A stretch of DNA of 64,000 nucleotides from an uncultured Thermoleophilia bacterium (GCA_963735345.1 CAVTKL010000013.1:321130-385129), one strand, 5' to 3'. Positions 24,262-60,592 are shown, numbered from the stretch's first letter. Notes: a model not told the origin generated them from the letters alone. Numbers and translations: made by a program.

Positions 24262-24414
24262 TCAACTCCTGAGCCGCAATGCCGAGGCCATGCCTGACGC
24301 AGAACGCACATGTGCTCTGCACGAGGCGAACGATCGGCAGTCGATGGTGGCGTCACATCCTCTGAAAGGACAGGGGATCCGGCCATTCTCGACACTGGAT
24401 CATAGGAGGCAGAC

Positions 24415-29763: not shown

Positions 29764-29799
29764 TGCGCCCGGTCCCATTGGCTGCTTCGCCCGCGACCG

Positions 29800-31092: not shown

Positions 31093-31095
31093 CGT

Positions 31096-42501: not shown

Positions 42502-43794
42502 GGGCTGATCTGCCGAGGCAGCTGTCAGACGTTGGATCAGGTGCCTGCCCACGCGCCCGAAGAAACGCGACGCAGCGACAGCGGAGGGCATAGGGTCGTC
42601 CCAGCGGAAGTACGGAAGGACCTGGCGGTGTGCGAGACTCCTGGCCCAAGCGAAGAGTGTGAGCTCCTTTCGTTGCCTGAGCTCGAGAAAGGCCCGGACA
42701 TCTCGCCCCGGCCACCACAGATGCAGCCCCTGCGTGTACTGCTTCCCATCGAGTGACTCGTTTGGCAGACCGACAAGCCGGCCGTAGACGAACGGCGCCA
42801 GATCGTACCCGCTCGCCACAAGAAGCATGTTCGCCGCCGTGAACCGCGCGTTGCACTCGATGACTTTCAGCTTGCCGTCCCGCTGATCGAGCTTGAACTC
42901 GACGTTGCCGAGTCCGAGAAGCCCAGCATGTTCGAAGAGGCGCAGGCCCAGGTCGCGGACCTCGGGGATCCAGTCGGTGACGTGGTAGCAGCCCATCCCC
43001 CGATTCACTGGGAAGCGGCGAACGACGCGCTTCGTGTACGCGAAGAGCGGCGTGCCCGTCTCGTCCACGTATGAGAAGAGGCTGCACAGGCGATCGTCCG
43101 GTCCAGGGATCTCTTCCAGGAGCAGAACGTCCAGACCGTGGCTCGTGGCGCGAGAGTAGGCGCTCATCAGCTCGGCGAAGTCCATGACCCTGAAGAACTT
43201 CGCGCCGAAGACGGCGACGAACTTGTGTGAGTAGAGCGGTTTGACCAGCAACGGGTAGACGAACTCGTCCTTCTGGGCCTCCAGATGCTCTACGCTGTCG
43301 GCCGTCCAGAACAGAGGCGTGTCGAGTCCGGCCTCGCGCGACACCCGATAGGTGGACAGCTTGTTGAGAAAGCAGCGCTGAGCCGACGGGTCGGAGATAT
43401 CCAGCACGAACTTGTCAGCCAGTCGCTCCCGGTGCTCCAGAATGATCTCGATGCCGGCGTCACTGCAAGCTAGAAGGACGGCTCCTCGCAGTGGCTCCGA
43501 CTCCTGCCCGAGCAGGTATCGAGCCCAGGCGTCCTGAGGCCGAACATCCTGTGGCAGACGGATGAATCGCGCGTGTCTCGAATACGCGTCCGAGGTACCG
43601 GGGTTTCCCAGCAGGTACACCCCGATGCCCCGCTGGCCGAGGCTTCGCGCGACCGACAGGGCATTGGCCTCTGACCCCCCCAGAAGGATGGCCGGAGGAA
43701 GGCCGCGGCTGCCATTCAATTGGCCACGGTACGGAGTGCGTGGAGTCTGCATCGTCGGCCGCTCTCCGCCGTGGTCTGTCTGCGCCGTATCCAT
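42376..43794 (-). CDS. ATP-grasp domain protein (carboxylate-amine ligase-like)
   Basis: ATP-grasp fold motifs (YPLLVKP, EEIPGPDD, KVIECNARF). Start is uncertain (M at 43794 or 43752). The 3' end overlaps the convergent Ldh_2 gene by 126 nt. Confidence 0.6.
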   Translation of the reverse strand: MDTAQTDHGGERPTMQTPRTPYRGQLNGSRGLPPAILLGGSEANALSVARSLGQRGIGVYLLGNPGTSDAYSRHARFIRLPQDVRPQDAWARYLLGQESEPLRGAVLLACSDAGIEIILEHRERLADKFVLDISDPSAQRCFLNKLSTYRVSREAGLDTPLFWTADSVEHLEAQKDEFVYPLLVKPLYSHKFVAVFGAKFFRVMDFAELMSAYSRATSHGLDVLLLEEIPGPDDRLCSLFSYVDETGTPLFAYTKRVVRRFPVNRGMGCYHVTDWIPEVRDLGLRLFEHAGLLGLGNVEFKLDQRDGKLKVIECNARFTAANMLLVASGYDLAPFVYGRLVGLPNESLDGKQYTQGLHLWWPGRDVRAFLELRQRKELTLFAWARSLAHRQVLPYFRWDDPMPSAVAASRFFGRVGRHLIQRLTAASADQPSRRSIFVKGALRQRGECRGDIECGAESQQFVVEVGRERDPV

Positions 43795-44187
43795 TTCGAT
43801 GACGACCCCCTGCGGCCCCTCGACCGGGAAGGTCGACCGGAGCGTACGACTTCCTGGCCGACCCGCCGTGAGTACGGTCGAGTCCGACCCGGGCGACCCG
43901 TCGAGCGCCGGGCGCGCCCGTCGTGCGCCGTCCGCGGCACCCACTGTCGCGGGAGTCTACTCCAATCCCCTCCAGCCGGCGACGGGCGCGTGCTCGGCCT
44001 CGCCGATGACGTCGTCGCAGTCCTGGACTCTTGGTCGGGTCCCCTCCACTTTCCAGCCGCCGCCGTGCCAGAGTAGACTGTCTCGGGCTACGCCGAGTAC
44101 GGCGTCGTCGAACTCAGCCAGCCGCGACCGAGCCCAATGAGGGCTGGCCTCGGCTACTCCTCAGCAACGGGCGAAGAGAGGCCGAAG

Positions 44188-45216
44188 CACATGTCTGAGC
44201 CACTCCGTATCGGCATCGTCGGTCTTGGCAAGATGGGCGGCATCCGCGCCACGACGGTCCGCCAGAACGACGACACGGTCCTGATCTCGGGCACTGACCC
44301 AGCCCCACCGGCGAGGGGCTTCGGCGACCTGCGTCTCTTGCCGGACTACAAGGCGGTCATCGACTCCGACGTCGATGCGGTGTTCGTCTGCACGCCCAAC
44401 CGCTTCATCCCCGAGGTCGCGATCGCCGCCCTGGATGCCGGCAAGCACGTCTTCTGCGAGAAACCGCCCGGCCGCACGATGGACGACATCGAGCACATCA
44501 TGGCTGCCGAGACACGCAACCCCGGCCGCGTCCTCAAGATCGGCTTCAACCACCGGTACCACTTCGGCATCATGGAGGCGAAGCGCATCGTCGAGAGCGG
44601 CAAGTACGGCAGGATCCTGTGGATGCGTGGCATCTACGGCAAGGGGCAAGGATCCGCGGGCTATCCCAACGAGTGGCGCCGCGATCCCGCCGTATCCGGC
44701 GGAGGAATACTTCTCGACCAGGGGATCCACATGCTCGATCTGTTCCGGCACTTCAGCGGAGAGTTCACTGAGATCAAGAGCATGTGCGCAACGTCCTTCG
44801 GGGACGCTCCCTTGGAAGACAACGCCTTCGCCCTGCTGCGAAGCGAGCAGGGATGCGTCGCCATGCTGCACAGTTCCGCAACGCAATGGAAACACCGATT
44901 CACCATTGAGATCTGCATGGAGAATGGCTACGTGGTCGTGGACGGCATGCCCTCCTCCACGCGCAGCTACCGAGACGAATGGCTCATCGAAGGCGAACGA
45001 TCCGGAGGATTCGCGATCGGCAACCCGCCCGAGAAGTCCACGTTCTGCAACACTGACCCGTCGTGGGACCTCGAACTCGTCGAGTTCGTCGACTGCATCC
45101 GCCGCGGTCAACCGACCCGCTATGGCACCTCCCGAGACGCCTTCGAGACGATGCGGCTCGTGTTCGGCATCTATGCTGCCGATACGGGGTTCGTCGAGCC
45201 ACCAGCGACGCCATAG
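44188..45216 (+). CDS. Gfo/Idh/MocA family NAD(P)-dependent oxidoreductase
   Basis: RIGIVGLGKMGG Rossmann motif and EKP motif (VFCEKPPGR). SD GAGAGG. Confidence 0.8.
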   Translation, partial: HMSEPLRIGIVGLGKMGGIRATTVRQNDDTVLISGTDPAPPARGFGDLRLLPDYKAVIDSDVDAVFVCTPNRFIPEVAIAALDAGKHVFCEKPPGRTMDDIEHIMAAETRNPGRVLKIGFNHRYHFGIMEAKRIVESGKYGRILWMRGIYGKGQGSAGYPNEWRRDPAVSGGGILLDQGIHMLDLFRHFSGEFTEIKSMCATSFGDAPLEDNAFALLRSEQGCVAMLHSSATQWKHRFTIEICMENGYVVVDGMPSSTRSYRDEWLIEGERSGGFAIGNPPEKSTFCNTDPSWDLELVEFVDCIRRGQPTRYGTSRDAFETMRLVFGIYAADTGFVEPPATP

Positions 45217-45244
45217 CGAACGCTCCAGGCGAGGAGAGCCCACG

Positions 45245-46198
45245 AAGGATCACACGCCGATCGCCGTCACCTCACGCTCCTTCTCGCGACACCCGATCCT
45301 GCGGGCGGAGCTGATGGAGAGGTACTCGGACATCCGCTTCAACGACGAGGGCTTGGCTCTCGGCGGCGCGGCGCTGGTGGAGTTCGCGCGCGGCCGCCGC
45401 AAGCTGATCACCGCGCTCGAACGTATCGATGAGACCGTGCTCGCCGCGCTGCCCGAGCTTGAAGTGATCAGCAAGTACGGGGTCGGTACCGACATGCTCG
45501 ACAAGCGCGCCATGGCCCGACACGGCGTCCGCCTGGGATGGACCGGCGGCGTCAACAAGCGCTCGGTCACTGAGCTCGCGATCGCCTTCATGCTCTCGCT
45601 GCTTCACGAGGTGCCGCTGGCCAATCGGGAACTGGCAGCTGGCACCTGGAAGAACCGTCAGGGGCGAGAGCTCTCTGGTCGCGTCGTCGGCATCGTCGGC
45701 TGCGGAAGCATCGGCAAGGACCTCGCACCTCTCCTGCGCGCGTTCGGGTGCACGGTCCTGGCCCATGACATCCTCGACTTCCCGGAGTTCTACGCAGCCA
45801 ATCAAGTGGAGCCGGTCGGGCTCGAGGAACTCCTGCAGCGATCGGACGTCGTGACCCTGCACGTGCCGCTGGACGACAGCACGCGCAACATGCTGAACGC
45901 CGGAAGGCTTCGTCTGCTGAAGCCCGAGGCGGTGCTCATCAACACGGCCCGCGGCGGCCTTGTCGACGAGGTGGCCCTCAAAGCCATGCTGGCGGAGGGC
46001 CGCATCGGCGGGGCGGCGTTCGATGTGTTCGCGACAGAGCCGCCCGAGGATCTCGAATTGCTCCGCTTGCCCAACTTCCTCGCCACGCCGCACATCGGCG
46101 GCAGTTCTCAGGAGGCGGTGCTGGCGATGGGCCGCGCGGCGATCAGGGGACTGGACGACAACAGGCCGCCGACCGACGGTGCCGGGGCCATGGACTGA
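45245..46198 (+). CDS. D-isomer-specific 2-hydroxyacid dehydrogenase (PGDH-like)
   Basis: GIVGCGSIGKD NAD motif and catalytic His region (PHIGGSS). No canonical start codon between the upstream stop (45216) and the conserved N-terminus, so the start coordinate is approximate. Confidence 0.7.
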   Translation, partial: KDHTPIAVTSRSFSRHPILRAELMERYSDIRFNDEGLALGGAALVEFARGRRKLITALERIDETVLAALPELEVISKYGVGTDMLDKRAMARHGVRLGWTGGVNKRSVTELAIAFMLSLLHEVPLANRELAAGTWKNRQGRELSGRVVGIVGCGSIGKDLAPLLRAFGCTVLAHDILDFPEFYAANQVEPVGLEELLQRSDVVTLHVPLDDSTRNMLNAGRLRLLKPEAVLINTARGGLVDEVALKAMLAEGRIGGAAFDVFATEPPEDLELLRLPNFLATPHIGGSSQEAVLAMGRAAIRGLDDNRPPTDGAGAMD

Positions 46199-46208
46199 TG
46201 GAGTAGCG

Positions 46209-47003
46209 ATGAGAAAGAACACCGTGAAAGAGATCTGGGCACGCGGCGGAGCCGTGATCAACGGCTGGTGCTCGATCCCCAGCTCGTTCTCCGCTGAGAT
46301 CATGGCCCATCAAGGCTTCGACTCGATCACCATCGATATGCAGCACGGATTGGTGGACTACCAGGTCGCAGTCACGATGCTGCAGGCCATCTCGACGACG
46401 CCGGTCATCCCACTCACCCGGGTGCCGTGGAGTGACCCGGCCCGACTCATGAAAGTCCTTGATGCGGGCTCGTACGGGGTGATCTGCCCGATGATCAACA
46501 CCCGGGAGGATGCCGAGGCCTTGGTGGCTGCGTGCAAGTACCCGCCGAGAGGCTTCCGCAGCTTCGGCCCTATCCGGGCGAAGTACTACGGCGGCGGCGG
46601 CACGCACGGCGGCGGCGACTACCACCACTTCGCCGACGAGGAGACGCTCGTCATCCCGCAGATCGAGACTCGTCAGGCCATCAGCAATCTCGACGAGATC
46701 CTCGAGGTCCCAGGCATCAGCGCGATCTACATAGGACCGTCGGATCTCTCCATGGCGCTGGGCAAGGAGCCACGCGCAGGGCAAAGCGACCCGGAGGTGC
46801 GGGAGGCGATGCGGACCATCCTCGCCGCCGCCAAGCGTCACGGTATCCCAGCCGGCATCCACACCAACTCAGTGGGGGTCGCCGTGGAGATGATCAAGCA
46901 GGGCTTCCAGCTGACCTCCTTGCAGAGCGACGACCGCTTCCTCATGGCGGCGGCGAAGGCCGAGGTGGAGGCAGTACGCAAGGGCCTCGGCGAGGACAGC
47001 TGA
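46209..47003 (+). CDS. HpcH/HpaI family class II pyruvate aldolase
   Basis: Characteristic HpcH/HpaI-fold regions (VINGWCSIPSSFSAEIM, IPQIETRQAI, IYIGPSDLS). SD GGAG. Confidence 0.75.
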   Translation: MRKNTVKEIWARGGAVINGWCSIPSSFSAEIMAHQGFDSITIDMQHGLVDYQVAVTMLQAISTTPVIPLTRVPWSDPARLMKVLDAGSYGVICPMINTREDAEALVAACKYPPRGFRSFGPIRAKYYGGGGTHGGGDYHHFADEETLVIPQIETRQAISNLDEILEVPGISAIYIGPSDLSMALGKEPRAGQSDPEVREAMRTILAAAKRHGIPAGIHTNSVGVAVEMIKQGFQLTSLQSDDRFLMAAAKAEVEAVRKGLGEDS

Positions 47004-47014
47004 AGGAGGCCCCG

Positions 47015-47635
47015 ATGACGTTCCCTGACACCAGGTTCGCCGACGCTGGTGACTACGCAGACGCCTACTTCGAGCACATTCGCGAGGCCGCGGCCTCTGT
47101 CGACGGAGCCAAGCTTCAAGCGGCGGCCGTCATCCTCACACAGGTCCACCGTCACGGCGGCATGGTCTACTCCTGCGGTAATGGAGGGTCAGCGGCCATC
47201 GCCAACCACCTGGTCTGCGACCACTGCAAGCTGGTGCGCACCGACACGGACCTTACACCGCGCATCTACTCGCTCAGCTCCACCATCGAGCTCATCACCG
47301 CCATCGGCAACGACCTGTCGTACGACGAGGTGTTCGTGTACCAGCTGAAAGCGCTTGCCAAGCCCGGCGACGCACTGATCACGATCAGTTCCTCCGGTGA
47401 CTCCGAGAACGTGGTGCGTGCCTGCGGCTGGGCCAAGGAGTACGGCCTCCCCGTGATTGCGATGACGGGCTTCTCCGGTGGCCGTTCGGCGCACCTGGCG
47501 GACGTGAACCTGCACGTCGAGGCCGACAACTACGGTGTCATCGAGGACGTGCACCAGTCGCTGATGCACATCCTTGCCCAATACATCCGGCAAGCGCACA
47601 TGGACGAGGCGCTCGTCGAGAGACGTACGTTCTGA
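47015..47635 (+). CDS. SIS-domain phosphoheptose isomerase (GmhA-like)
   Basis: GNGGSAAIANHL and ISSSGDSENV motifs match GmhA. SD AAGGAGG. Confidence 0.75.
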   Translation: MTFPDTRFADAGDYADAYFEHIREAAASVDGAKLQAAAVILTQVHRHGGMVYSCGNGGSAAIANHLVCDHCKLVRTDTDLTPRIYSLSSTIELITAIGNDLSYDEVFVYQLKALAKPGDALITISSSGDSENVVRACGWAKEYGLPVIAMTGFSGGRSAHLADVNLHVEADNYGVIEDVHQSLMHILAQYIRQAHMDEALVERRTF

Positions 47636-47769: not shown

Positions 47770-48790
47770 ATGCCCGATCTGGGGAGCACGGTGTACCTCC
47801 ATCATGTTCCCGACTGGGCCGCCGAAGCACTTCCCGACCTGTACCAGAGCTGCTACGCGGTCCAGGACTACTTCCTTGAGGACGACCCATCGAGGAACAT
47901 GAGCACCTGTGTCCTGGAGGACCCACGACACATCGTGGTGTTCGCCGTGGATGGCCGAACGGTTGTCGTGCAGAATCGGCTGTTCGATATCGACCCCAGG
48001 TCTGCGTCTCGTGTGATCCGCTCGATCTTCCGCGCGCTTCCCCGCGTTCGCCGCGATCCTGATGAACCGGTCGAAACTCGACCTCAGTGCGATGCCCCAC
48101 CCAAGTCGGGTCATTGAGACAGCTTCAAACATGGTCGTCGCCCTGCCGGACGACCTCGAGAAGTACCTCGCGGGCTTGGGCAGGACGCGTCAGAACCTGC
48201 GCAGGTACTTCAGGCGGTTCGCGACGTCCTTCCCGACGTACACCTTCAGCACGCTTAGGTCCAGCGAGATCGACCACGCCTTCGTCCACCGCATGGTCGA
48301 GATGAACCGTCAGCGCATGGCAAGCAAGGGCTGGGTCAGCTCGTATCGCGACGAGGACGAAGCCTTCCTCTTGGAGCGCGCGCAACGTCATGGCTTCGCC
48401 TGCGCGATCACGATCGACGGCACGATTGTCGCGGGCACCCTCTCATCACGCGTGGGCGACCAAGTCTACCTGCACATAACGACGTTCAGCAATGAGTACT
48501 TCGAGTACCATCTTGGCTACGTCGTGCTCTTCCTGCTCGTGTCGGCGTGCATCGACGCCGGGGTGGAGAAGCTGCATTTCCTCTGGGGCAAGTCCGAGTA
48601 CAAGATGCGCTTCGGCTGCATCGAGGAGCGAGTCCACGATGGGTTCGTCTATCGTTCGTGGATCTGGTGGGCCCTGAGCATGGACGACATCGCGAAGCGA
48701 ACCCGCTGGCGCTGGCGCACAGGACGCGCGTCCGCGATGCGCGCCGCGCTGCGACGCCGCCTGCGCCGCCTGTACCCACTGAAGCAGTAG
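47770..48790 (+). pseudogene. FemAB/CelD-like GNAT acyltransferase (Acetyltransf_6-like), one frameshift near 48040
   Basis: N-terminal half is in ORF 47665-48117 and C-terminal half in ORF 48062-48790. The two halves are in different frames. Confidence 0.5.
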
Positions 48791-48937: not shown

Positions 48938-50706
48938 GTGCTCAGCGCGCACGGAGGAGTCGACGCCATGACGTGGCTCATGATCCGCTGGATGCTTCTG
49001 TTCGTGCTCTGTCTGGGTGCCGCGCCAGCTGTTCGTTCTGGCTTCTGCCTCTTCAGAGAAGGCGGGAGCCACCCGCACCCCTACTGCCGCGAGGGCGGCG
49101 GCCGCCCCTCTGAGCAAGTGGCAGGTGACGCTAGGCGCCTCGCCGGCCAAGGTCCAGATGAACCAGAGGATCACCTTCTCGGGGGCTGTAAGCGACGGCA
49201 AGCGGCAAGGCCGGAACCGGCACCGTGACGATCCAGAAGCGGCCCTTCTCAGGCGGCGCCTGGAGCACCTGGAGGTCGGCGACCCTGAGCTCGCGGGGCG
49301 GCTACGCACTCACCGTCACGATGACCGCCGCCCAGGTCTCGCAGGTGCGCGCCAGGATGCCCGGCAACGCCGCCAGCGCCACCGGCTTCAGCGCGAACAA
49401 GAAGGTCACGGTGGAGGCCGCGGCAGGCAAGACGCTCAGCGTGCGCGAGTTCGGCGCGAAGGGAGACGGCAAGAGGGACGATACCGCCGCCATTCGCGCC
49501 GCCCTGAAAGCCTCCTTGGCAAAGGGACGCACTCTCTCTTTCCCCTCTGGGACCTATAGGGTGAGCTCCCTCCTGCTGCCTGCCAGAGCCAAACTCGCCG
49601 GCGCAGGCGCGGGGCGCACCTGGATCAAGGGACGTGTGGAGGCGAGCGGCGGCGATCGCCTGAAGGACCTGAAGGTCGGCGTCGACGGCCACTCGTTCCG
49701 TTTCGTCAACGGCACCAGAGACGTCCTTTTCGAGCGAGTCACCTTCGTCGGCGGCGGCGGCTCCTCCGACGCCCTGATCGATTCGGGCGTGATTCGTTTT
49801 CACGAGGGTCGCAGGGCATCGTTCATCACCTTTCGTGCCTGCACCATCGGCCGCAACTCGGCGAACGGCAACGGCGTGATCCTGGTCGACCGGGGTCGCC
49901 CCGACGCCACCTACCACGACATCGTCTTCGAGCGGTGCCACTTCCTGGCCTCTCCGCGCATGAGCTTCGAGGCCATCCAGCGGCCGTCGGGCGACGAAGC
50001 AATCACCACGGGCTACCACGGGATCGACCTGATCGCAAACCTCTTCGAACCGGCAGGTTCCCAAGCCATCTCATACGACGCCGACGAGGGGCTAGCCGGT
50101 GACTCGCTTGTCTCGGGCAATGTGATCATGGGCGCCGGCACGAACGCGGCCTACCCATGGGGAGCGGGTGTCGAGTTCAACGGCGTTGAAGCCATGCGGT
50201 TCGTCAACAACAAGGTCTACCGCTGTCGCGGGTCGATGATCAACCATCAGGGCTACGCTCGCGCCGTGTCCAACAACACGTTCAGCAACAACGTCTTCGA
50301 CAGCACCACAAGCCATATCCGGCTCACGCCGTCCGCCTGGACGGGCGTCATCGAGTTCATTGGTGTGACGGGTTCGCAGTTCATCGACAACATCGTGCGG
50401 ACCAACGTGGGCGGCCAGCAGGTCATGCTATCCGAGTCATCCGACAACGCTTTCCTGCGGAACGAGATCACGGATGAGCGGCCGGCTCCCTACGCGCTGG
50501 CGTCGGTGTGGCTGGAGGACACCTCCCTCCGGAACACCTTCGACAGCAATCGCTTTGAGACCGCCGCTGAGTGGGGGACCTTCTGTGCGTACCGAGGCTC
50601 AGACTTCAACGTCGTGTCCAACTGCGCGTTCGTCACGTACGGCGGCAGACCCGTCGATGTGGACCCCGGCCTCACGTTGACGCTTGTGAACAACACGTAC
50701 AGGTAG
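48938..50706 (+). CDS. Secreted pectate-lyase-superfamily right-handed beta-helix protein; two frameshifts in the N-terminal 300 nt
   Basis: Signal peptide in frame 2 (48938), Ig-like segment in frame 0 (49017 ORF), then the beta-helix (REFGAKGDGKRDDTAAIRAAL motif) in the 49225 frame. Confidence 0.7.
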
Positions 50707-50865
50707 CTGGAGACCGAAGAGGCGCCGGTCTCGGAAGTACGGACCTCTGCAGTACCAGCATCGGCGAGCAAGCGGGACAACCTCCCGTTCTCTCGCCGCT
50801 TCCATTGTGCGAGAATGGCACGACTCGCTTCGGGCCGGAGTCATCTTTCAGAGGGGGCGACTCAC

Positions 50866-51966
50866 GTGAATCGGCGCGGGATCGGACGCTTCGAGCGGGT
50901 CCTCATACAGGTCGGCCCTGCGCGCCAGTCCGGCGGCATCGCCGACGTGATGCAGGCCATCGAGCGCTGGTCGCGCGCCTCTGGACGACCTGTGCGCACC
51001 GTGAACACCTCGTGCGACGGTCCCCTCGCGGCACGGGCGGCCACGGGCGTTGCGGGCGTTGCGCAAGCACTCGCACACATCGCCGCCCAGCCTGAGGCAC
51101 TAGTCCACGTGCACATGGCCTCCAACGGCAGCTTCCTCCGCAAGTCGACCGTCGTCATCGCCGCGCACGCGCTGAGACGGCCGATCGTCCTGCAGATCCA
51201 CGGCGGCGGCTTCGCCGCCTTCGCCACCGGCGGCAGCGCCGTACGCAAGCGCTGCGTCAGGCATGTTCTCGGCCTCGCTGACGTCGTCCTTGTCCTCAAC
51301 GAGGCTTCTCGTCGGGCGATGGGCGCGCTTCAGCCGAACGCGCCCATCGAGATCGTCCCCAACCCGGCGACGCTTCTCTGCGGTACGCTCACGGACCCCG
51401 CTTCGAGACAGATCCTCTTTCTTGGCCGCCTCGGGCGAACAAAGGGCACCGATGTGCTCCTGGAGGCCATTCGCGCCCTTCAGGCTGCGGGGGTTGATGC
51501 CGACTATGTACTCGCAGGGGACGGCGACATCAAACGCACGCGCGAGGTAGTCTCGAGTCTGCCGGCCCCGCAGCGTGTGCGGGTCCCGGGCTGGGTGCGG
51601 GGAGATGATGTTCACATACTGCTGCACGAGTCGAGCGTCTTCTGCTTGCCCTCGAGATACGAGGGTCTTCCCATGGCGCTGCTGCAGGCCATGGGGCACG
51701 GTCTCGCCTGCGTCGTCACGCCCATAGGTGGCATGCGCGACATCATCGACAGTGGAGAGAACGGCATGCTGATACCGGTAGACGACAGCCAGACGCTGGC
51801 ACGGGTGCTCGGGAGCCTCCTCGTCGACGCACCGGAGAGGGCCAGACTCGGTAGAGGGGCCGCCGAGACCATCCAGGCCGGGTACACGCCGGATGTGGTC
51901 ATGCGACGCCTGGACGAGATCTACTCCACCATGTGGGCAGGCGAGGGCCATCATGGGGGCGCTTGA
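50866..51966 (+). CDS. Glycosyltransferase family 4
   Basis: GT4 motif EGLPMALLQAMGHGLACV. GTG at 50866 with GAGGGGG SD. Confidence 0.8.
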   Translation: MNRRGIGRFERVLIQVGPARQSGGIADVMQAIERWSRASGRPVRTVNTSCDGPLAARAATGVAGVAQALAHIAAQPEALVHVHMASNGSFLRKSTVVIAAHALRRPIVLQIHGGGFAAFATGGSAVRKRCVRHVLGLADVVLVLNEASRRAMGALQPNAPIEIVPNPATLLCGTLTDPASRQILFLGRLGRTKGTDVLLEAIRALQAAGVDADYVLAGDGDIKRTREVVSSLPAPQRVRVPGWVRGDDVHILLHESSVFCLPSRYEGLPMALLQAMGHGLACVVTPIGGMRDIIDSGENGMLIPVDDSQTLARVLGSLLVDAPERARLGRGAAETIQAGYTPDVVMRRLDEIYSTMWAGEGHHGGA

Positions 51967-53351
51967 CCGTCTGCGCGGTTCCTACGTCAACTCGCCGCCC
52001 TGGCTCCAGTCGACGGGAGGGCGCGCGCTCTCGGTGGTTCCTCCTGCCATCCTCTACGGGACGGCCTTCCGCGAACTGCGGGCTGACATCGAGCGCAGCC
52101 GCCACGATGCCGCGTTCGTCGACGAGCGCGTTCGCGCGTCGCTGCGCACGCTGTTGACGCGCGCCAGCGCGACCGCATTCTATGGCCCATTCGCTCTCCC
52201 GGATCGATCTGGAATCGCCCAGCGTCGCGGGCCTCGCGACACTGCCGATCCTGACGCGAGACGCGGTGAGAGCACAGACGGAACGCATGCTCACGGTCCC
52301 CAGGTCAGGACTGGACGAACGTCATACCAGCGGCACGTCGCACGCCCAACTCACTGTCTTCCTGGACAGAGACAGGTCAGTGCGGGAATGGGCCTTCATC
52401 ACGAACGTCTGGGGCAGGAGCGGATACCGCCTGGGCGACCGGCGCGCCTTTCTGCGGCGGGGCGAAGGAGGCCTGCCCGGAGACTGGACGTGGGAGCCAG
52501 GCACCAGAGAGTTGCGACTGACACCGTTCAGGATGATCCCGCCGGTCATGGACGACTATCTGAGCCTCATGTCTCACTACAGGATCGCCTACGTCCACGG
52601 CTACCCCTCCGCAATCACCCTCTTGGCGGCGCATGCCCGCAGGACGGGATGGGCGCCCTCACCGCCTCTGAAGGGTGTATTGCCCATCTCGGAGTCCCTC
52701 CTGCCGCACCAGCGCGAGATCATCCGGGAGGGCTTCGGGCCGGTCCGCATCCAGCCCTTCTACGGACTCACGGAGAAGGTCGCCCTGGCGGGCGAGATCG
52801 GCGACCGCCCCGACGAGTACGAGTTCGAGCCGCTCTACGGCATCACCGAGATCGTCGACGCCAGTGGCGAGCCCGTCGAGCCCGGGCAGCGCGGCAGGCT
52901 CATCGGCACTGGCTTCATCTCGATGGGCATGCCGCTCATCCGCTACGACACGGGTGATCTCGCCACCCTGGTCGATGCGCCTTCGGCGGAGAACTGCTGG
53001 CGTCTGCGAGCCAGGAACATCTCCTCGTGCTATGCGCAGGAGTATGTCGTGACCAACGAACGGGGCCTCGTCTCGGGGCTCTCCGCCCGTCCGCACGATG
53101 ACCGCGTCAAGGACTTCCAGATCGTCCAGCGGGAAGCCGGGCACATCACGCTGCGCATCGTCCCCGAGGAGGGAGTTGGCCTCGACAGACTGGCCTCCAT
53201 TCCCGAGAAGACGCGCGCCGAGTTCGATGATCTCGTATCGGTCGACATGGAGATCGTCGACGCGATCCCGCTCACAGCGGGCGGGAAGAAGCGCTACGTG
53301 GAGCAGCATCTCGACCTTTCCCAGTACGGGGGTGTCGATGCTCCGGAATAG
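51953..53351 (+). CDS. CapK / phenylacetate-CoA-ligase-like adenylate-forming enzyme; one frameshift near 52195
   Basis: N-terminal 80 aa are in the 51893 frame, and the rest is in the 52182 frame with AMP-binding-like motifs (TSGTSH, YGLTEK). Confidence 0.6.
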
Positions 53352-55317
53352 TCTGGCCGCCCATCCCGCAGTGCGCCGCGTCGCGTGGCGCACACGGCGG
53401 TTGCAGAGCATGGCGCCCGAGGAGATCGTGTGGCGCCTGCGCACGCGCGCGCTGCTCGAGATCCTGCGTCGGCGGGGAGACTGGCCCGGGCCACGCTTCG
53501 TCGCGCGCCCGGGTCGCTCGCCCTATCGAATGCCCGCGCTGGGCGAACTCGGCGAACACAGCTCCGTGATCCAGCAGGCCGAGCGCCTGCTCGATGGACA
53601 GCTCACCGCCTTGGACCAGTCGTTCTGCCTGGACAACGTCGACTGGCACCGTGACCCGCAGACCGGCGTCACGGCCCCCTTGAGTTTTGGCCCACTCATC
53701 GACTACCGCGACCCGAAGACCGTCGGCAACGTACGCAACATCTGGGAGCTCAGCCGTCATCAGTACCTGACGATCGCCGCGCTCGCCTTCGCCCTCACGC
53801 GCGACGATCGGTTCGCCCTGTTCGTGCGCCGTCAGCTCGAGTCGTGGCTCGCACAGAACCCGTTCGCCCTCGGGGCGAACTGGGCGAGCCCACTCGAACT
53901 GGGGCTGCGTCTCATCTCCTGGGTCTGGATCGCCCGCTTCCTGGAGGGCAGCCCGCACGGTGAGGCGCTGTTCGGAGCGGGAGGCCTGATGTGGCGTGCG
54001 GTCTACCAACACCAGTGGATGATCGCCCAACTGCGCTCGACCGGTTCGTCCGCAAACAACCACCTCATCGGCGAGATGGCGGGTCTGCTGATCTCGACGC
54101 TCGAGTGGCCGGTGTTCCCCGAGTCTCCGTCTTGGGCGCAGAGCGCACAGGCAAGCCTCAGCGCCGAGAGCGAACGCCAGTATTACCCCTCAGGAGTGAA
54201 CCGCGAACAGGCCTTCGGCTACCAGCTCTTCGCCACGGAGTTGCTGATTCTGGCCGGGATCGAGGCCCAGCGCGCGAAGCGCCCCTTCGGACCGGACTAT
54301 CGTACACGCCTGCTCAGAGCCTCAGATGCCGCCTTGGGGCAGGTCGGCGCTGGGGGGATCCTTCCGAGGTACGGCGACGCGGACGACGGGATGGCATTCG
54401 GGCTACCCGGCGGGGGCGACCAGGTCCTGGGCCGCATCGCCATAGTCGCTTCTCGATGGCTCAGGCGCGAAGGCGACCCGCCTCGGGCATCGCTTGACCA
54501 GCAGCTGGCCGCCCGCTTGCTGCTCTCAGGCCTGCCCTCCGAAGGGCCTGACGCGGCGCTTCCCGACCGTCCATCGCCTCTCGGCAGCCGAGCGTTCCCA
54601 GATGCCGGCCTCTTCGTCATGACCTCTCGTGAGGGAGACGAGGAGGTCTTCTGCCTCGCAGACGCCGGCGAACTGGGTTACCTGAGCATCGCCGCCCACG
54701 GGCACGCCGATGCCCTCGCCTTCACTCTCGCCGTCGGCGACGAGCAGATCGTCGTCGACCCCGGCACCTACACGTATCATCTCGACCCACAGGCGCGCGC
54801 GTATTTCCGCGGCACGCGCGCGCACAACACGATCACGCTCGACGGCCAGGACCAGTCCGTCGCAGCCGGCCCGTTCCTGTGGACGCGTAGAGCGCAGGCG
54901 GCGATGCAGGAATGGCGCGTGCACGAACGGGGCGCCCTCCTCAAAGCCAGCCACGATGGCTACCGACGGCTGGCCGATCCGGTCATCCACCACCGTACCC
55001 TGGCCCTGGAGGGGGGAGTGCTGACGATCGATGATGAGCTCGCCGGTGGCGACGTCCACGACGTGGAGTGGCGCCTGCACCTCGGGCCTCAATGCGCCGC
55101 ACGAATCCAGGCCGACGAATGCCAGATCTGGGGAGGGCGTCACCGCCTGACCCTTCAGCTCGACAAAGCCCTTCGCTGGGACCTGCTCGTGGGGGCTTCG
55201 CAAGGAGGTTGGTACTCATGCCATTTCAATCAGCGACAGAAGTCCGTGACCGTGGTCGGCAGCGGTCGTCTCGCGCTGCCGGTGACCCTTCAGCACGTCT
55301 TGCGGGTGTCTAGGTGA
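53338..55317 (+). CDS. Heparinase II/III-like (alginate-lyase-like) protein
   Basis: 660 aa with the Hepar_II_III N-terminal alpha-toroid and C-terminal beta-sandwich architecture. Overlaps the upstream stop by 14 nt. Confidence 0.7.
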   Translation: MLRNSLAAHPAVRRVAWRTRRLQSMAPEEIVWRLRTRALLEILRRRGDWPGPRFVARPGRSPYRMPALGELGEHSSVIQQAERLLDGQLTALDQSFCLDNVDWHRDPQTGVTAPLSFGPLIDYRDPKTVGNVRNIWELSRHQYLTIAALAFALTRDDRFALFVRRQLESWLAQNPFALGANWASPLELGLRLISWVWIARFLEGSPHGEALFGAGGLMWRAVYQHQWMIAQLRSTGSSANNHLIGEMAGLLISTLEWPVFPESPSWAQSAQASLSAESERQYYPSGVNREQAFGYQLFATELLILAGIEAQRAKRPFGPDYRTRLLRASDAALGQVGAGGILPRYGDADDGMAFGLPGGGDQVLGRIAIVASRWLRREGDPPRASLDQQLAARLLLSGLPSEGPDAALPDRPSPLGSRAFPDAGLFVMTSREGDEEVFCLADAGELGYLSIAAHGHADALAFTLAVGDEQIVVDPGTYTYHLDPQARAYFRGTRAHNTITLDGQDQSVAAGPFLWTRRAQAAMQEWRVHERGALLKASHDGYRRLADPVIHHRTLALEGGVLTIDDELAGGDVHDVEWRLHLGPQCAARIQADECQIWGGRHRLTLQLDKALRWDLLVGASQGGWYSCHFNQRQKSVTVVGSGRLALPVTLQHVLRVSR

Positions 55318-56615
55318 ACATCAGCATCTTCGGATTGGGCTACGTCGGCGTGGTCACCGCAGCGTGCCTGGCCCGGGACGGACATGAGATCGTTGGCGTC
55401 GACGTCAACCCCGAGAAGGTCGCAGCGATCGCCGCCGGCCGATCCCCCATCGTCGAGCCCGGGCTGGCGGAGTTGTTGCGCGCAGGGGTCGCGGCCGGAC
55501 GCATTCGCGCCACCGTGGACGTGAAGCAGGCGATCGACGAGACCGAGGTCTCGCTGATCAGCGTGGGCACCCCCACTTCAGACAGAGGCGCCCCGAACCT
55601 CGGTCACGTCCGAAAGGTATCCGCCGAGATCGGCGCGGCTGTGGCGGGCAAGGCCAAGCCGCACGTCATCATCCTGCGCAGCACCGTACCGCCCGGGACC
55701 CTGAAAGAGTGCGCTGAGATCGTCGGTGAATGTGCCGCGGGCGTTCCCGTCGGGTTCGCCTTCAACCCGGAGTTCCTCCGAGAAGGATCCGCGATCGCCG
55801 ACTTTGACCACCCCAGCTACACGGTCATCGGCACGGAGAGCCGTGCCGCGGAGGATGCAGTCCGAGGCGTCTACGCCGGCGTCGACGCGCCGTTCCTGGT
55901 CGTGCCGCCGGAGGTGTCTGAGATGGTCAAGTACGTCGCCAACTGCTGGCACGCGACCAAGATCGGCTTCGCCAACGAGGTGGGAAGGGCCGCGAAGGCC
56001 TTCGGCGTTGACGGGCGTGTCGTCATGGGCATCATCGCCAAGGACACCAAACTGAACGTCTCTTCTGCCTACATGAAGCCCGGATTCGCGTACGGAGGCT
56101 CCTGTCTGCCCAAGGACGTCAGGGCCCTGTTGTACTACGCGCGGGAGATGGGCGTGGAACTGCCGATGCTCACCGCGCTTCCTCACTCCAACCAGCTGCA
56201 GATCGACGCCGCGCTCCATCTCGTTCTGGCAACCAGGGCTTCACGCGTCGCGGTGTTCGGCTTGGCCTTCAAGTCCGAGACCGACGACCTCCGCGAAAGC
56301 CCGGCGGTCCCGCTCGTGAAGGCGCTCCTCGGCGAAGGCTGCGAGATCCGCATCTACGCTCCCGACGTCAACAAGGCGCGGCTCATGGGCACCAACCTTG
56401 ACTACATTCGGGAGAACATCCCGCATTTCGAGCATTTACTGGTGGACGATCCGCAGGACTCGGTCGCTTGGGCCGAGACGGTCGTCGTGACCCATCCGCA
56501 GGCGCAGTTCAGCAAGGCCCTCGAGGCGGCGCCGGCCGGCAAGCGCATCGTCGATCTGGCGGGCGTGTTCGCTGAGAGACCACAACGATTCGAGTACGAT
56601 GGCATCGCCTGGTAG
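55314..56615 (+). CDS. algD: GDP-mannose 6-dehydrogenase (AlgD-like nucleotide-sugar dehydrogenase)
   Basis: N-terminus MNISIFGLGYVGVV...GVDV closely matches AlgD. Catalytic GGSCLPKD. GTGA overlap with the upstream gene. Confidence 0.8.
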   Translation: MNISIFGLGYVGVVTAACLARDGHEIVGVDVNPEKVAAIAAGRSPIVEPGLAELLRAGVAAGRIRATVDVKQAIDETEVSLISVGTPTSDRGAPNLGHVRKVSAEIGAAVAGKAKPHVIILRSTVPPGTLKECAEIVGECAAGVPVGFAFNPEFLREGSAIADFDHPSYTVIGTESRAAEDAVRGVYAGVDAPFLVVPPEVSEMVKYVANCWHATKIGFANEVGRAAKAFGVDGRVVMGIIAKDTKLNVSSAYMKPGFAYGGSCLPKDVRALLYYAREMGVELPMLTALPHSNQLQIDAALHLVLATRASRVAVFGLAFKSETDDLRESPAVPLVKALLGEGCEIRIYAPDVNKARLMGTNLDYIRENIPHFEHLLVDDPQDSVAWAETVVVTHPQAQFSKALEAAPAGKRIVDLAGVFAERPQRFEYDGIAW

Positions 56616-57846
56616 CGTCCTTATCGTCGTCGAGAACCTCCCCGTTCCCTTCGATCGCAGGGTCTGGATGGAGGCGACGACCCTCGCAGCCGCCGGATAC
56701 GACGTCAGCGTCATCTGCCCCAAGGGCAAGGGGTATTCGCGCGCCCACGAAGTCATCGACGGCGTGTCGGTGTACCGTCACGACTTGACCGTCGAAGGGC
56801 ACTCGGCGCGCACGTACCTGCAGGAGTACGCACAGGCGCTATGGCGCGAGGCCTCGCTCGCTCGCCGCATCTATCGCGCCGACCCGTTCGATGTGCTTCA
56901 CGTCTGCAACCCTCCTGACCTCATGTTCCTCTTCGCGCTCTGGTTCCGGATCCGTCATGGGGTCAGGATCATCTTCGATCACCACGACATCAACCCGGAG
57001 CTTTACGAAGCAAAGTATGGGAAGCGAGACGCCTTCTATCGCGTCTTGCGCCTCGCCGAACGACTCACATTCCTCACGGCCCACGTCGTCATCACGACCG
57101 GCGAGAGCTACCGTGAGATCGCGCTGCATCGCGGCCACAAGAGGCCCGAGGATGTGTTCATCGTCCGCAGCGGCCCTGACATGGCCAAGTTCCGCCCTGT
57201 GCAGCCGGTGCCCGCCTACAAGCACGGCCGCCGCTTCCTCGTTGGATACGTTGGCGTCATGGGACCTCAGGAGGGGATCGACTACCTCTTGCGGGCGGTG
57301 CGCATCATCGTCCATGAGCGCCGGCGGACCGACATCTCCTTCGTACTCATCGGCTCGGGCCCGGCAGTCGACGATCTCAAGACGCTTTGTGCCGACCTGG
57401 ACGTGTCGGGCTACGTGGAGTTCACCGGTCGAGTACCCGACGAGGAGCTTGTCGCGCGCCTGTCGACCTGCGACCTGTGCGTGAACCCCGACCCGCACAA
57501 CCCGTTCAATGACGCGTCCGTCATGAACAAGATCCTGGAGTACATGGCCCTCGCGAGACCGGTCGTGCAGTTCGATCTCACTGAGGGGCGCAGGTCAGCG
57601 GGCGCAGCGAGCACGTACGCCCGCCGCAACGACCAGCACGACCTCGCGGAGAAGATCCTCGAGTTGCTCGCCGACGACGCGCGGCGCCGACAGATGGGCG
57701 AGGAGGGGTATCGGCGCATGCGCGATGAGCTGGAGTGGAAGCACCAGGTGCCGAAGCTCCTGCGTGCCTACGGCAGAGCGCTGGCGAAGCCTCCAAGGGG
57801 AGCCGCGCGGCGAATTGGCTCATTCGCGGATCGAATGCGGCGCTGA
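56599..57846 (+). CDS. Glycosyltransferase family 4 (WcaI-like)
   Basis: GT4 motif NKILEYMALARPVV. Overlaps the algD-like end by 17 nt. Confidence 0.8.
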   Translation: MASPGSVLIVVENLPVPFDRRVWMEATTLAAAGYDVSVICPKGKGYSRAHEVIDGVSVYRHDLTVEGHSARTYLQEYAQALWREASLARRIYRADPFDVLHVCNPPDLMFLFALWFRIRHGVRIIFDHHDINPELYEAKYGKRDAFYRVLRLAERLTFLTAHVVITTGESYREIALHRGHKRPEDVFIVRSGPDMAKFRPVQPVPAYKHGRRFLVGYVGVMGPQEGIDYLLRAVRIIVHERRRTDISFVLIGSGPAVDDLKTLCADLDVSGYVEFTGRVPDEELVARLSTCDLCVNPDPHNPFNDASVMNKILEYMALARPVVQFDLTEGRRSAGAASTYARRNDQHDLAEKILELLADDARRRQMGEEGYRRMRDELEWKHQVPKLLRAYGRALAKPPRGAARRIGSFADRMRR

Positions 57847-58080: not shown

Positions 58081-59646
58081 TCAGTACGCCCCGCGCTTCG
58101 CAAGCACGGCCGGCACCGTCTGCAGAAGGAGCTTGATGTCCCAGCTCAGACTCCAGCCGGTGACGTACATGTAGTCCAGCTTGACCATCTCGTCGAAGGG
58201 GATGTCGCTGCGCCCCAGGACCTGCCACAGCCCGGTGATGCCCGGCGTGATGTCGAGACGCTTCTGCGTCCAGCCATGCACCTGCCGAGCCTCCTCCACC
58301 CACAGCGGCCGGGGACCCACCAAGCTCATGTCGCCCTTTATCACATTGATGATCTGTGGCAGCTCGTCGATGCTCCAGCGTCGAATGAACTCCCCGACCC
58401 GCGTCACCCTGGGATCGCGCTTCATCTTGAACATCGGGCCCGAGTACTCGTTCTGCTCGCTGAGCTCCTCGCGAAGCTCATCGGCGCCGAGCCGCATGGA
58501 GCGGAACTTGAGGATCATGAAGGGCCTGCCGCCGCGTCCCATCCGCTCCTGACGGAAGAAGACGGGGCCCTTGGAGTCGAGTTTGATGACGATCGCCATG
58601 ACGACGAGCACGGGCAGGAAGAACAAGAAGATGATGCCGCCGACGAAGAGGTCGAACGCGCGCTTGACCACCATGTTGAAGCGGCTGAGCTCGACGTGAC
58701 CGACGTCGAGCAGCGGGATGCCTTCGACGTCGTCGACGAGCGCGCGCGAACTGACCACTTCGAAGAGGCGCGGCACGATGTTGACCCGTACCGCGGAGTC
58801 GGCACAGGTGCGCACGATCCGCAGAAAGTCGTCGTGCCGAGCTCGCGAGAAGGCGACGATCACACGGTCCACGCGCTGCTCAAGGACGATGCGCTTCAGG
58901 TCATGGAAGGCGCCGACCATGGGCACGGGCGGTCCCCCAGTACCGTTGCGGCGCGGCTCTCCATCGTCGAGAAACCCCACCAGGGTGATGCGGTACTCGG
59001 GGTGTTTGCTGATCTTCTCCGCGATCATGTGACCGACTTCGCCGGCTCCGATGATGAGCACGCGCTCGCGCAGCGCCGTGGTCGACCAGATCGTGTGCCG
59101 GCTGATCGTTCGGCAGATGGGGACCAGGACGATGGCGATCAGCCAGAAGACGATGAGGACGCCGATGGGGGCCTGGCTGCCTTGGATGGACACGAGCGCG
59201 ATGAGCAGCAGCCAGCTGGCGGCCGTCAACGCGGTCGGGCCACTCAGCGTCTCCGTGAGGTCGGCGCCGCCGATGCTGCGACCGGGGGCCCGGTAGAGGC
59301 CAAAGGCCCAGAGCGCCGCGAGCCAGTACGGAACGAGAGCGACGAACATGAACACACTGCCGCCCTCGATCTGGGAGAACGGCGAAACCAGCCGTTCGAC
59401 GACGGGCACCCCGACGAGAGCATCAGCCACCCACACGGCGAGCGACGACGCGACCAGTATGCCAAGGGTGTCGGCGCCGACCGTCGCCGCGATGCGAAGC
59501 TTGGCCGGTCGTTTGGTCAGGGTGTGCTCGAGAGCGGCAGCTTGGACCGCGAGCTCCCCGTAGGTGTCCACGCTTCTGAGTGTTCCGTCCGACATGTACC
59601 CAGCATCGGCAACATCGGCGCTGAACAATAGAGGGTCTCTCCCCAT
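58081..59646 (-). CDS. wbaP: Undecaprenyl-phosphate hexose-1-phosphate transferase (WbaP/CpsE-like polyprenyl glycosylphosphotransferase)
   Basis: N-terminal TM block, CoA-binding-like domain and C-terminal bacterial sugar-transferase domain (KFRSM, DELPQ, PGITGLWQ). Start is uncertain (59646 or 59595). Confidence 0.85.
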   Translation of the reverse strand: MGRDPLLFSADVADAGYMSDGTLRSVDTYGELAVQAAALEHTLTKRPAKLRIAATVGADTLGILVASSLAVWVADALVGVPVVERLVSPFSQIEGGSVFMFVALVPYWLAALWAFGLYRAPGRSIGGADLTETLSGPTALTAASWLLLIALVSIQGSQAPIGVLIVFWLIAIVLVPICRTISRHTIWSTTALRERVLIIGAGEVGHMIAEKISKHPEYRITLVGFLDDGEPRRNGTGGPPVPMVGAFHDLKRIVLEQRVDRVIVAFSRARHDDFLRIVRTCADSAVRVNIVPRLFEVVSSRALVDDVEGIPLLDVGHVELSRFNMVVKRAFDLFVGGIIFLFFLPVLVVMAIVIKLDSKGPVFFRQERMGRGGRPFMILKFRSMRLGADELREELSEQNEYSGPMFKMKRDPRVTRVGEFIRRWSIDELPQIINVIKGDMSLVGPRPLWVEEARQVHGWTQKRLDITPGITGLWQVLGRSDIPFDEMVKLDYMYVTGWSLSWDIKLLLQTVPAVLAKRGAY

Positions 59647-59779
59647 TTCCAGTCCGGAGATCGCCACGCTCGCCCCCCCGCCAAGACCAAGCCGGCCATC
59701 AGGCTCTGTGCTGTCTGTACCCGTCGGCGCCCATCCTGGAACCCCAGCGACCTCCGACGACACCCCCCTGACGTCGACG

Positions 59780-60592
59780 CTACCCAAGCGCCACGTCCAG
59801 GACCATCATCAGCGCGAAGCCGGCCATCAGGCTCATGGTCACGAAATCGCTGTGGGAACCCCGATGAGCCTCGGGGATAAGCTCCTCGGCGACCACGAAG
59901 ATCATCGCGCCGGCCGCGAAACTCAGGGCATATGGCAGAAGGGGCTGCATCAGGAGTACGGCGGCGGCGCCGACCACTCCCGCGATCGGCTCGACGATTC
60001 CCGAGAGCTGACCCCACCAGAAGCTGCGCCGCCGCGAGAGTCCTTCGCGGCGCAGCGGCATCGAGACGGCCGCCCCCTCCGGGAAGTTCTGGATGCCGAT
60101 GCCCAGCCCCAGGGCGATGGCCGCGCCGAGCGTCGCCCCCGGCAGGCCGGCGGCCGCGGCGCCGAAGGCGACGCCGACGGCAAGCCCTTCGGGGATGTTG
60201 TGGATGGTGATCGCCAGCACCAGCAGTACGCTGCGCCGCCACGACGTGTGGACGCCCTCCGCAGCACTTGTCGGGAAGCCCGGGTGAAGATGCGGCACGA
60301 GCTTGTCCACCGCGAGCAGAAAGGCCCCGCCGGCAAGGAAGCCGACCACGGCGGGCAGCCACGCGGACCCCATGGTCTGGCCCGCAAGAGCGATGGCCGG
60401 CGCCAGCAGCGACCAGTAGCTCGCAGCGATCATGACCCCTGCCGCGAAGCCGAGCATCGAATCCATGACGACCGGCCGGAAGTCCTTGGCGAAGAACACG
60501 AGGGCCGCGCCAGCGGCCGTCACGGCCCAAGTGAAGCAGGTCGCAACAAGAGCCTGGACGATGGGATCGAGGTCCCGAAAAGCGTTCAGCAT
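59780..60592 (-). CDS. zupT: ZIP-family zinc transporter (ZupT-like)
   Basis: Eight TM helices and the [10 protein letters not shown] signature. ATG at 60592 with a GGTGGAG SD. Confidence 0.8.

Follow-up and report, generated by a model that had tools for sequence, protein, structure and literature searches.

A heparinase-like protein linked to an AlgD-clade dehydrogenase and a GT4 glycosyltransferase in a capsule-type locus and across bacterial phyla

The window analysed here is a stretch of 64,000 nucleotides (nt) from an uncultured Thermoleophilia bacterium (GCA_963735345.1 CAVTKL010000013.1:321130-385129), with a G+C content of ~66%. Between positions 50866 and 57846 it carries five plus-strand genes in succession. 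Among them are genes for a heparinase-III-like protein (Hep), a GDP-mannose 6-dehydrogenase-like protein (GMD) and a glycosyltransferase (GT4b), which form the cassette described below. The five genes were assigned by Pfam and NCBIfam as follows (protein lengths in amino acids, aa).

50866-51966, plus strand: GT4a, GT4 glycosyltransferase of 366 aa, first gene of the operon (Pfam Glyco_trans_1_4 and Glycos_transf_1)
51953-53351, plus strand: CapK/PaaK-like adenylate-forming enzyme, 1399 nt, frameshifted
53338-55317, plus strand: Hep, heparinase-III-like (PL12-like) protein of 659 aa (Pfam Hepar_II_III_N and Hepar_II_III_C)
55314-56615, plus strand: GMD, GDP-mannose 6-dehydrogenase-like protein of the AlgD clade, 433 aa (bit scores, tree and Pfam)
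56599-57846, plus strand: GT4b, GT4 glycosyltransferase of 415 aa, putative mannuronosyltransferase (Pfam GT4 domains)

The start/stop junctions were read directly from the sequence. In gene order, they are overlaps of 14 nt (ATG..TGA), 14 nt (ATG..TAG), 4 nt (GTGA) and 17 nt (ATG..TAG). GT4a starts with GTG, and a GGGGG run resembling a ribosome-binding site lies ahead of it. A metagenome contig with 98-99% identity (98% for Hep) shares all of these genes and overlaps, and its GT4a is of identical size (366 aa). The gene order and overlapping junctions given in the initial annotation were thus borne out, and its proposal of a single translationally coupled operon is supported. The arrangement is not a product of chance, because the order Hep-GMD-GT4b recurs in dozens of unrelated genomes.

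For the comparison across genomes, 80 genomic Hep loci were taken with 10-kb flanks, and the window proteins were mapped onto each. Among the 65 loci with at least 3 kb of downstream sequence, GMD lay directly downstream of Hep in 25, and another 13 had it elsewhere within 10 kb. In 37 of the 39 dehydrogenase-bearing loci, GT4b came immediately after GMD. The order Hep-GMD-GT4b was present in Cyanobacteriota, Gemmatimonadota, Chloroflexota, Bacteroidota, Fibrobacterota, Pseudomonadota, Actinomycetota, Desulfovibrionaceae and Deinococcus, so that the cassette spans at least nine bacterial phyla. Its carriers in the Pseudomonadota include Candidatus Accumulibacter phosphatis. The operon had been singled out for lying outside Proteobacteria. 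This stands as far as the host is concerned, which is very probably non-proteobacterial and Thermoleophilia-like, but the location is not exceptional, as the nine phyla include Proteobacteria. The window thioredoxin shares a 90%-identity cluster with a sequence labelled as Thermoleophilia, and the best-matching genome was that of an uncultured Thermoleophilia MAG.

An unbiased clustering of all open reading frames (ORFs) within 8 kb of Hep in the 80 loci returned GT4b (41 loci) and GMD (40 loci) as partners, along with GT4a-like proteins (23 loci). CapK-like enzymes were found near Hep in ~22 of the 80 loci, and an AsnB-type glutamine amidotransferase in 20, usually directly upstream. A two-domain oxidoreductase (ADH_zinc_N and GFO_IDH_MocA; ADH/GFO hereafter) was encoded directly upstream of Hep in 13 loci. 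The AsnB-like and CapK-like enzymes, both carboxylate-adenylating, mostly replace one another near Hep.

The pairing of a GDP-mannose 6-dehydrogenase with a heparinase II/III-family protein had been called a hallmark of mannuronate polymers. Literature searches did not bear this out as a documented hallmark, although the synteny itself is real and recurrent. No description of the cassette was found in the full-text literature, which is weak evidence, since most subscription papers lie outside the searched collection. The Hep-GMD-GT4b cassette is thus widespread and apparently undescribed.

GMD has the three-domain UDPG_MGDP_dh architecture (Pfam N-terminal, central and C-terminal domains), and it matched the GDP-mannose dehydrogenase of Pseudomonas aeruginosa (1mfz) over its full length with 418 bits and 47% identity. 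The best UDP-glucose dehydrogenase reached 254 bits, and structures of the UDP-ManNAc/UDP-GlcNAc dehydrogenase type ~100-125 bits. The alignments to UDP-glucose dehydrogenases end short of the C-terminal nucleotide-binding domain of GMD, whereas the AlgD alignment covers it. The catalytic cysteine lies in GGSCLPKD, aligned to C268/K271/D272 of AlgD. A neighbour-joining tree was calculated with one AlgD (1mfz), five UDP-glucose-type outgroups and the dehydrogenases of loci L001-L083. In 200 of 200 bootstraps, the window GMD, all Hep-linked dehydrogenases and AlgD formed one clade, apart from the UDP-glucose type. The dehydrogenase is therefore AlgD-like, as first proposed, and the alternative of a clustering with UDP-glucose dehydrogenases fails on both scores and tree. 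From its membership in the AlgD clade, the expected reaction is the oxidation of GDP-mannose to GDP-mannuronic acid (GDP-ManA).

Within the clade, the AlgD of P. aeruginosa nested among the proteobacterial members of the Hep-linked dehydrogenases, again in 200 of 200 bootstraps with the one AlgD and five outgroups sampled. This topology suggests that the alginate pathway may have recruited its dehydrogenase from the broader Hep-linked family.

GT4b was 42-64% identical to its counterparts in loci of other phyla (53-64% in most of them, 73% in the nearest relative), and Hep 32-45%. Such a higher conservation of GT4b than of Hep, seen in most comparisons, is unusual for capsule glycosyltransferases and would fit a fixed donor. 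The best PDB match of GT4b was the GDP-mannose-dependent PimB', a weak match of 36 bits. The presence of Wzx, Wzy_C, PGT and Wzc genes in related cassette loci places the cassette in lipid-linked heteropolysaccharide pathways. One locus of this kind does not have Hep. In Nostoc sp. CP026692 (locus L086, 5182753-5196054) the order is PGT-Wzx-GT4-Wzy-(187-aa protein)-GMD-GT4b-Wzc, and the 187-aa protein has no Pfam match. Because this genome has GMD-GT4b without Hep, it suggests that Hep may be an accessory, dispensable tailoring enzyme.

Hep belongs to a large family, with 6,348 clusters at 50% identity in a profile search (E<=1e-30). A profile of 19 family members matched heparinase III in the PDB, with E values from 3e-27 to 3e-22, and PL15 alginate lyase weakly. 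The AlphaFold (AF2) model of Hep had a pLDDT of 84 and a pTM of 0.88. Its top Foldseek matches were the heparinase III structures 4mmh, 5jmd and 4fnv, followed by PL15, PL17, PL33 and glycosaminoglycan lyases. By model, Foldseek and alignment, Hep has the toroid plus beta-sandwich fold with the Asn/His, Tyr and His residues. N241/H242, Y295 and H454 were invariant in the family, and they aligned to the Asn/His, Tyr and His of Pedobacter heparinase III (N240/H241, Y294 and H424 in full-length numbering), which we take to be catalytic. Hep scored 44 and 26 bits with the NCBIfam HepC models, against cutoffs of 700 and 600, and is thus below equivalog level. In the NCBIfam scan, no curated equivalog covered Hep or GT4b.

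By a simple hydropathy test, neither the window Hep nor 110 of 111 full-length homologues have an N-terminal hydrophobic stretch. Two fusion proteins were found. In P0111 (1069 aa), Hep stands behind a GT4b-like domain, 41.5% identical to GT4b. In P0449 (1208 aa), it follows a Wzx-like flippase, whose last transmembrane segment leads into an Arg-rich linker. The apparent lack of a signal peptide and the fusions to GT4b-like and Wzx-like proteins point to action at the cytoplasmic face, probably on a lipid-linked intermediate, and make an AlgL-type periplasmic role unlikely. A reading of the heparinase-like protein as an AlgL analogue was not upheld by these features, nor by the Nostoc genome with GMD-GT4b and no Hep. 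A 664-aa protein beside a GMD homologue in locus L087 was considered as a divergent Hep and rejected, as BLASTP gave no match.

Other gene orders around Hep were also fixed. AsnB-Hep-GMD-GT4b occurred in five loci (L018, L027, L028, L047 and L051) and AsnB-ADH/GFO-Hep in six (L017, L023, L041, L045, L059 and L066); these orders with AsnB and ADH/GFO came from proteobacterial and actinobacterial genomes. Eight further loci, mostly from metagenome-assembled genomes of Steroidobacteraceae (L025, L033, L039, L048, L060, L067, L071 and L075), shared a distinct conserved block, GT4-GT4a-CapK-Hep, sometimes with a Wzy_C-type gene and PGT upstream. No GMD, GT4b or NDP-sugar dehydrogenase was found within 10 kb in the loci with this block.

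The CapK-like gene of the window is not the intact ORF that had been assumed. Its 1399 nt (51953-53351) have their first ~80 codons in one frame and the remaining 389 codons in the next, which opens only at 52158. In two independent relatives, the CapK-like protein matches frame 2 of the window at 51953-52195, and then continues in frame 3 at 52215-53339. A deletion scan placed a single extra base as follows.

52184-52196, plus strand: interval holding the single extra base of the CapK-like gene (deletion scan)

Removal of any one base in this interval gave equally good full-length alignments and restored a CapK-like protein of 465 aa. The repaired protein aligned end to end with the relatives from L084 and L085 and had no stop codons. 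In the 98%-identical contig the gene is intact (465 aa), with a match to PF27533 CapK_C. A start at ATG 52182 was rejected, because both relatives align ~80 more N-terminal residues to the upstream frame. The best PDB match of the repaired protein was the PaaK family structure 4r1l (37 bits to phenylacetate-CoA ligases), and 2y27 was matched as well. It contains TSGTS, YGLTE, YDTGD and GGKK, which we take to be ANL-type motifs. No curated NCBIfam equivalog fits the CapK-like protein, in agreement with the earlier remark that the function of such enzymes is still undefined.

Just upstream of the operon lies another gene with an apparent change of frame.

49017-50706, plus strand: beta-helix (pectate-lyase/epimerase-like) protein (Pfam Pect-lyase_RHGA_epim and Beta_helix on 49225-50706)

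Its N-terminal part is apparently in another frame, and in a relative a single frame covers at least 525 aa. A second frameshift is probable near 49190-49225. Directly after its stop codon, and before a 160-nt gap to GT4a, there is a 7-bp inverted repeat (GAGACCG..CGGTCTC, 50707-50732). The repeat could be a terminator without a T-tract, of a kind that the consensus scan did not flag; that scan for promoters and terminators gave nothing above shuffled expectation. Further apparent frameshifts were seen within the polysaccharide locus: a protein with 10-14 transmembrane segments (13832-15573) seems to be divided over two frames that overlap, and fragments of membrane proteins were seen on the minus strand (22961-25286).

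The remainder of the window contains several GT4 and GT2 genes, polysaccharide deacetylases and the following genes.

58081-59787, minus strand: WbaP/WcaJ-type polyprenyl-phosphate hexose-1-phosphate transferase, convergent with the operon (Pfam Bac_transf and CoA_binding_3; TIGR03025 406 bits, above cutoff)
15642-17384, minus strand: Wzc-like chain-length regulator/tyrosine kinase (Pfam Wzz, GNVR and P-loop domains)
48062-48790, plus strand: GNAT (Acetyltransf_6) protein (Pfam), of the same family as proteins beside CapK in L084 and L085, and also in L016
42376-43944, minus strand: ATP-grasp-like protein (weak CPSase_L_D2 match; 50% identity to an L084 gene and 31% to the ATPgrasp_Ter gene of L085)

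The closest relatives keep the ATP-grasp-like protein together with the cassette. In the scan of 48 window ORFs, Pfam found no Alg8/Alg44-type synthase, PilZ domain, AlgK, AlgE or AlgX, and no PL5 lyase. The sole GT2 noted in the synthase test has 294 aa and no predicted membrane segments. This agrees with the statement that Alg8/Alg44 are missing and with a WbaP-primed, Wzc-associated, lipid-linked heteropolymer context. Of the trio WbaP, Wzc and Wzy that had been named as the setting, the first two were found, and Wzy was not, apart from one weak candidate. This only polytopic candidate is the seemingly split protein at 13832-15573, with a weak GT87 match. We regard the locus as an ordinary capsule-type locus.

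Three other regions of the window were recorded. At 27659-31959 on the minus strand are an ABC-2 permease and ATPase, a fusion of NTP_transf_3 and APH, and a SIS-domain protein; they may form a second glycan system that depends on an ABC transporter and adjoins the WbaP/Wzc locus, and its substrate might be an activated heptose or a sugar-phosphate. Upstream of the operon (41404-47635) are an Ldh_2 dehydrogenase, the ATP-grasp-like gene (minus strand), a GFO/IDH/MocA oxidoreductase, a D-2-hydroxyacid dehydrogenase, an HpcH/HpaI aldolase and a SIS-domain protein, which might together supply an unusual sugar or an acidic substituent that is not a sugar. Also within the glycan locus, the minus-strand gene at 36642-40115 encodes a protein of 1157 aa in which BNR/YCF48-like beta-propeller units are repeated and immunoglobulin-like domains are present.

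The window was compared with known systems. With the alginate operon of Pseudomonas and Azotobacter (algD-8-44-K-E-G-X-L-I-J-F-A) it shares an AlgD-clade dehydrogenase that supplies the uronate donor, and the alginate pathway also includes enzymes that abstract the uronate H5 (AlgG and AlgL). In contrast to that operon, the window has no Alg8/Alg44 and no AlgK/E/X, and it has GT4 transferases and WbaP-type priming. AlgL (PL5) and AlgG (beta-helix) are periplasmic, whereas Hep is PL12-like and apparently has no signal peptide. Heparinase III/PL12 enzymes (Pedobacter HepC, 4MMH; Bacteroides BT4657, 5JMD and 4FNV) have the same two-domain fold and the aligned Asn/His, Tyr and His, but they are only 14-19% identical to Hep. 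The known enzymes are secreted and catabolic, while the Hep family stands in biosynthetic operons and apparently has no export signals.

Human dermatan sulfate (DS) epimerase 1 has a toroid plus beta-sandwich fold resembling 4MMH and 3A0O, with catalytic residues, including the active-site His/Tyr, conserved with heparinase II (PMC8006597). Like the enzyme proposed here, it has a heparinase-type fold, and it epimerises C5 of a uronate already in the glycan (PMC8006597). Unlike Hep, this eukaryotic enzyme works in the Golgi on a long polymer. No sequence similarity between it and Hep was detected, and the two are linked by fold and mechanism only. Three post-polymerisation epimerisations are listed, in alginate, heparan sulfate and dermatan sulfate (PMC8006597).

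In Vibrio vulnificus YJ016, the heparinase II/III-like VV0358 and the adjacent zinc-binding dehydrogenase VV0357 are each required for the capsule (PMC6037467). As in the 13 Hep loci with ADH/GFO, an ADH-type oxidoreductase gene there adjoins a Hepar_II_III gene by a capsule locus. No link to GMD-GT4b was reported there, however, and no biochemical function was assigned, and the window has no ADH/GFO beside Hep; the likeness is one of domains and adjacency. The Vi antigen (TviB/TviE) and teichuronic acid (TuaD/TuaC/TuaH) systems also have an NDP-sugar 6-dehydrogenase gene beside a retaining GT4 that uses its product. These systems differ in using UDP-sugars, and the TviE, TuaC and TuaH models of NCBIfam scored far below cutoff in the window. 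Among the PaaK/CapK- and AsnB-type enzymes of polysaccharide loci, uronate-amidating AsnB-like enzymes occupy the equivalent position in other loci, although the CapK-like branch is distant from the phenylacetate-CoA ligases, as its low bit score shows.

With somewhat more confidence than doubt, we propose that the cassette installs and tailors a residue derived from mannuronic acid (ManA) in a lipid-linked, WbaP-primed, Wzc-associated heteropolysaccharide, and that it does not serve an alginate-type synthase. GMD would convert GDP-mannose to GDP-ManA. GT4b is the likely retaining transferase that places ManA on an undecaprenyl diphosphate-linked repeat unit, because it is almost never separated from GMD, and GT4a would add a neighbouring sugar. 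At the cytoplasmic membrane face, Hep would abstract H5 of the uronate by means of its conserved Asn/His-Tyr-His machinery. Re-protonation from the other face would then give C5-epimerisation of ManA to L-guluronic acid (L-GulA), and beta-elimination would be the alternative. Epimerisation is favoured because it is hard to see what a lyase would do on a cytoplasmic intermediate, and because DS-epimerase 1 shows that this fold with heparinase-II-type residues can epimerise (PMC8006597). The CapK-like enzyme, like the AsnB-like amidotransferase in its place elsewhere, would probably activate a carboxylate, plausibly C6 of the uronate for amidation; this role is drawn by analogy with the AsnB-like partners. 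That the Hep family consists of cytoplasmic-face C5-epimerases of uronates on undecaprenyl diphosphate-linked repeat units, acting here from ManA to L-GulA, is put forward only tentatively, as a possible specific function within this broader scheme.

Several points weigh against this interpretation. Hep is not strictly tied to ManA, as 27 of the 65 loci lack any uronate-forming dehydrogenase within 10 kb, and in the Hep loci without GMD no alternative one was found within that distance. Signal peptides were judged by a crude heuristic based on hydrophobicity, and P0111 and P0449 are each a single database cluster, in which a gene-calling artefact is possible. Sequence cannot separate an epimerase from a lyase within the Hep fold, all solved structural neighbours returned were lyases, and DS-epimerase was not retrieved by sequence search from Hep. 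Pfam gave no Polysacc_synt (Wzx) or Wzy_C match in the window, and the ABC-2 transporter pair in the same region (30247-31959) would allow for another export route. Lastly, the GDP-mannose specificity of GMD is a prediction from its AlgD identity and clade membership.

Other functions for Hep were weighed against epimerisation. Its conserved machinery would equally serve a beta-elimination at the cytoplasmic face, in which an O4 substituent is removed from the lipid-linked uronate. The product would be a 4,5-unsaturated uronate or, after reduction, a 4-deoxy uronate, with the ADH/GFO oxidoreductase completing the reaction. The position of this oxidoreductase directly upstream of Hep in 13 of the 80 loci is in line with such an eliminase, as is the requirement for the adjacent oxidoreductase in the V. 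vulnificus capsule. The window itself has no ADH/GFO fusion beside Hep, though, and Hep-locus genes have not been connected with any polysaccharide that contains such a residue. An O4 leaving group would also be required, and no cassette gene obviously supplies one. We consider an eliminase unlikely. Slightly less probable still is an AlgL-type lyase that trims or clears a mannuronate polymer outside the cytoplasm, in a locus that makes an alginate-like polymannuronate stretch. The authors of the V. vulnificus study proposed this role for VV0358 (PMC6037467). It would be consistent with the conserved PL12-type catalytic residues, with structural neighbours that are all polysaccharide lyases, including the PL15 and PL17 alginate lyases, and with the adjacent source of GDP-ManA. 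It does not fit the 110 of 111 homologues without a signal peptide, the fusions to a cytoplasmic GT4 and a Wzx-like protein, or the lack of Alg8, Alg44, AlgK, AlgE and AlgX domains among the 48 ORFs scanned. Moreover, GT4 enzymes are retaining and transfer single residues, and do not synthesise beta-1,4-polymannuronate.

Two further alternatives concern the donor and the state of the operon. If the substrate of the dehydrogenase clade were not GDP-mannose but a different NDP-sugar, another uronic acid would be installed by the cassette. NCBIfam gives GMD only a generic NDP-sugar dehydrogenase subfamily, NCBI names its relatives generically, and the AlgD identity is only 47%. Against this stand the end-to-end AlgD alignment through the C-terminal domain, where the UDP-glucose dehydrogenases stop, the position of AlgD inside the clade in all bootstraps and the label GDP-mannose 6-dehydrogenase that the JGI pipeline gives to many clade members, and another substrate thus appears quite improbable. 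The operon might also be decaying, with real frameshifts in the CapK-like and beta-helix genes and a polysaccharide that is altered or no longer made. Decay would agree with the number of frameshifts, at least two over 3.5 kb and perhaps others in genes for membrane proteins of this locus, and with the intact state of the flanking housekeeping genes (IleRS, GlnA, Ask, Asd and PFOR). The same genes are intact in the 98%-identical contig, however, and the repaired CapK-like protein aligns without interruption to its relatives. Hep itself appears in its 90% cluster as fragments of 373 and 386 aa, from contigs of 1.47 and 1.06 Mb, a pattern typical of indel errors in long-read assemblies. Because of these fragments on long sister contigs and the intact gene in the near-identical contig, the CapK-like frameshift is probably such an assembly error, and we hold decay to be doubtful, if less so than the other alternatives.

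Heparinase II/III-like or 'alginate lyase family' genes in capsule and exopolysaccharide loci are routinely annotated, and then ignored or read as degradative. The linkage to an AlgD-type dehydrogenase and one GT4 in nine phyla, the apparent lack of export signals and the fusions argue for a biosynthetic tailoring role of Hep. If the epimerase proposal is true, GulA could arise in heteropolysaccharides without the alginate machinery. Hep would then be a bacterial case at the level of the lipid intermediate, beside the three post-polymerisation epimerisations and akin to DS-epimerase in mechanism and structure, and the Hep-GMD-GT4b cassette would mark heteropolysaccharides with ManA and GulA in nine phyla, including Accumulibacter. 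If the eliminase is true, a new sugar modification would be defined. Under both readings, the pairing of GMD with GT4b offers a practical genomic marker of surface glycans that contain mannuronate. Natural pairs with and without Hep, such as Nostoc versus Moorea or Deinococcus, are ready controls. The lasting value lies in the recognition of a widespread cassette, together with a hypothesis on its lyase-like member that can be tested.

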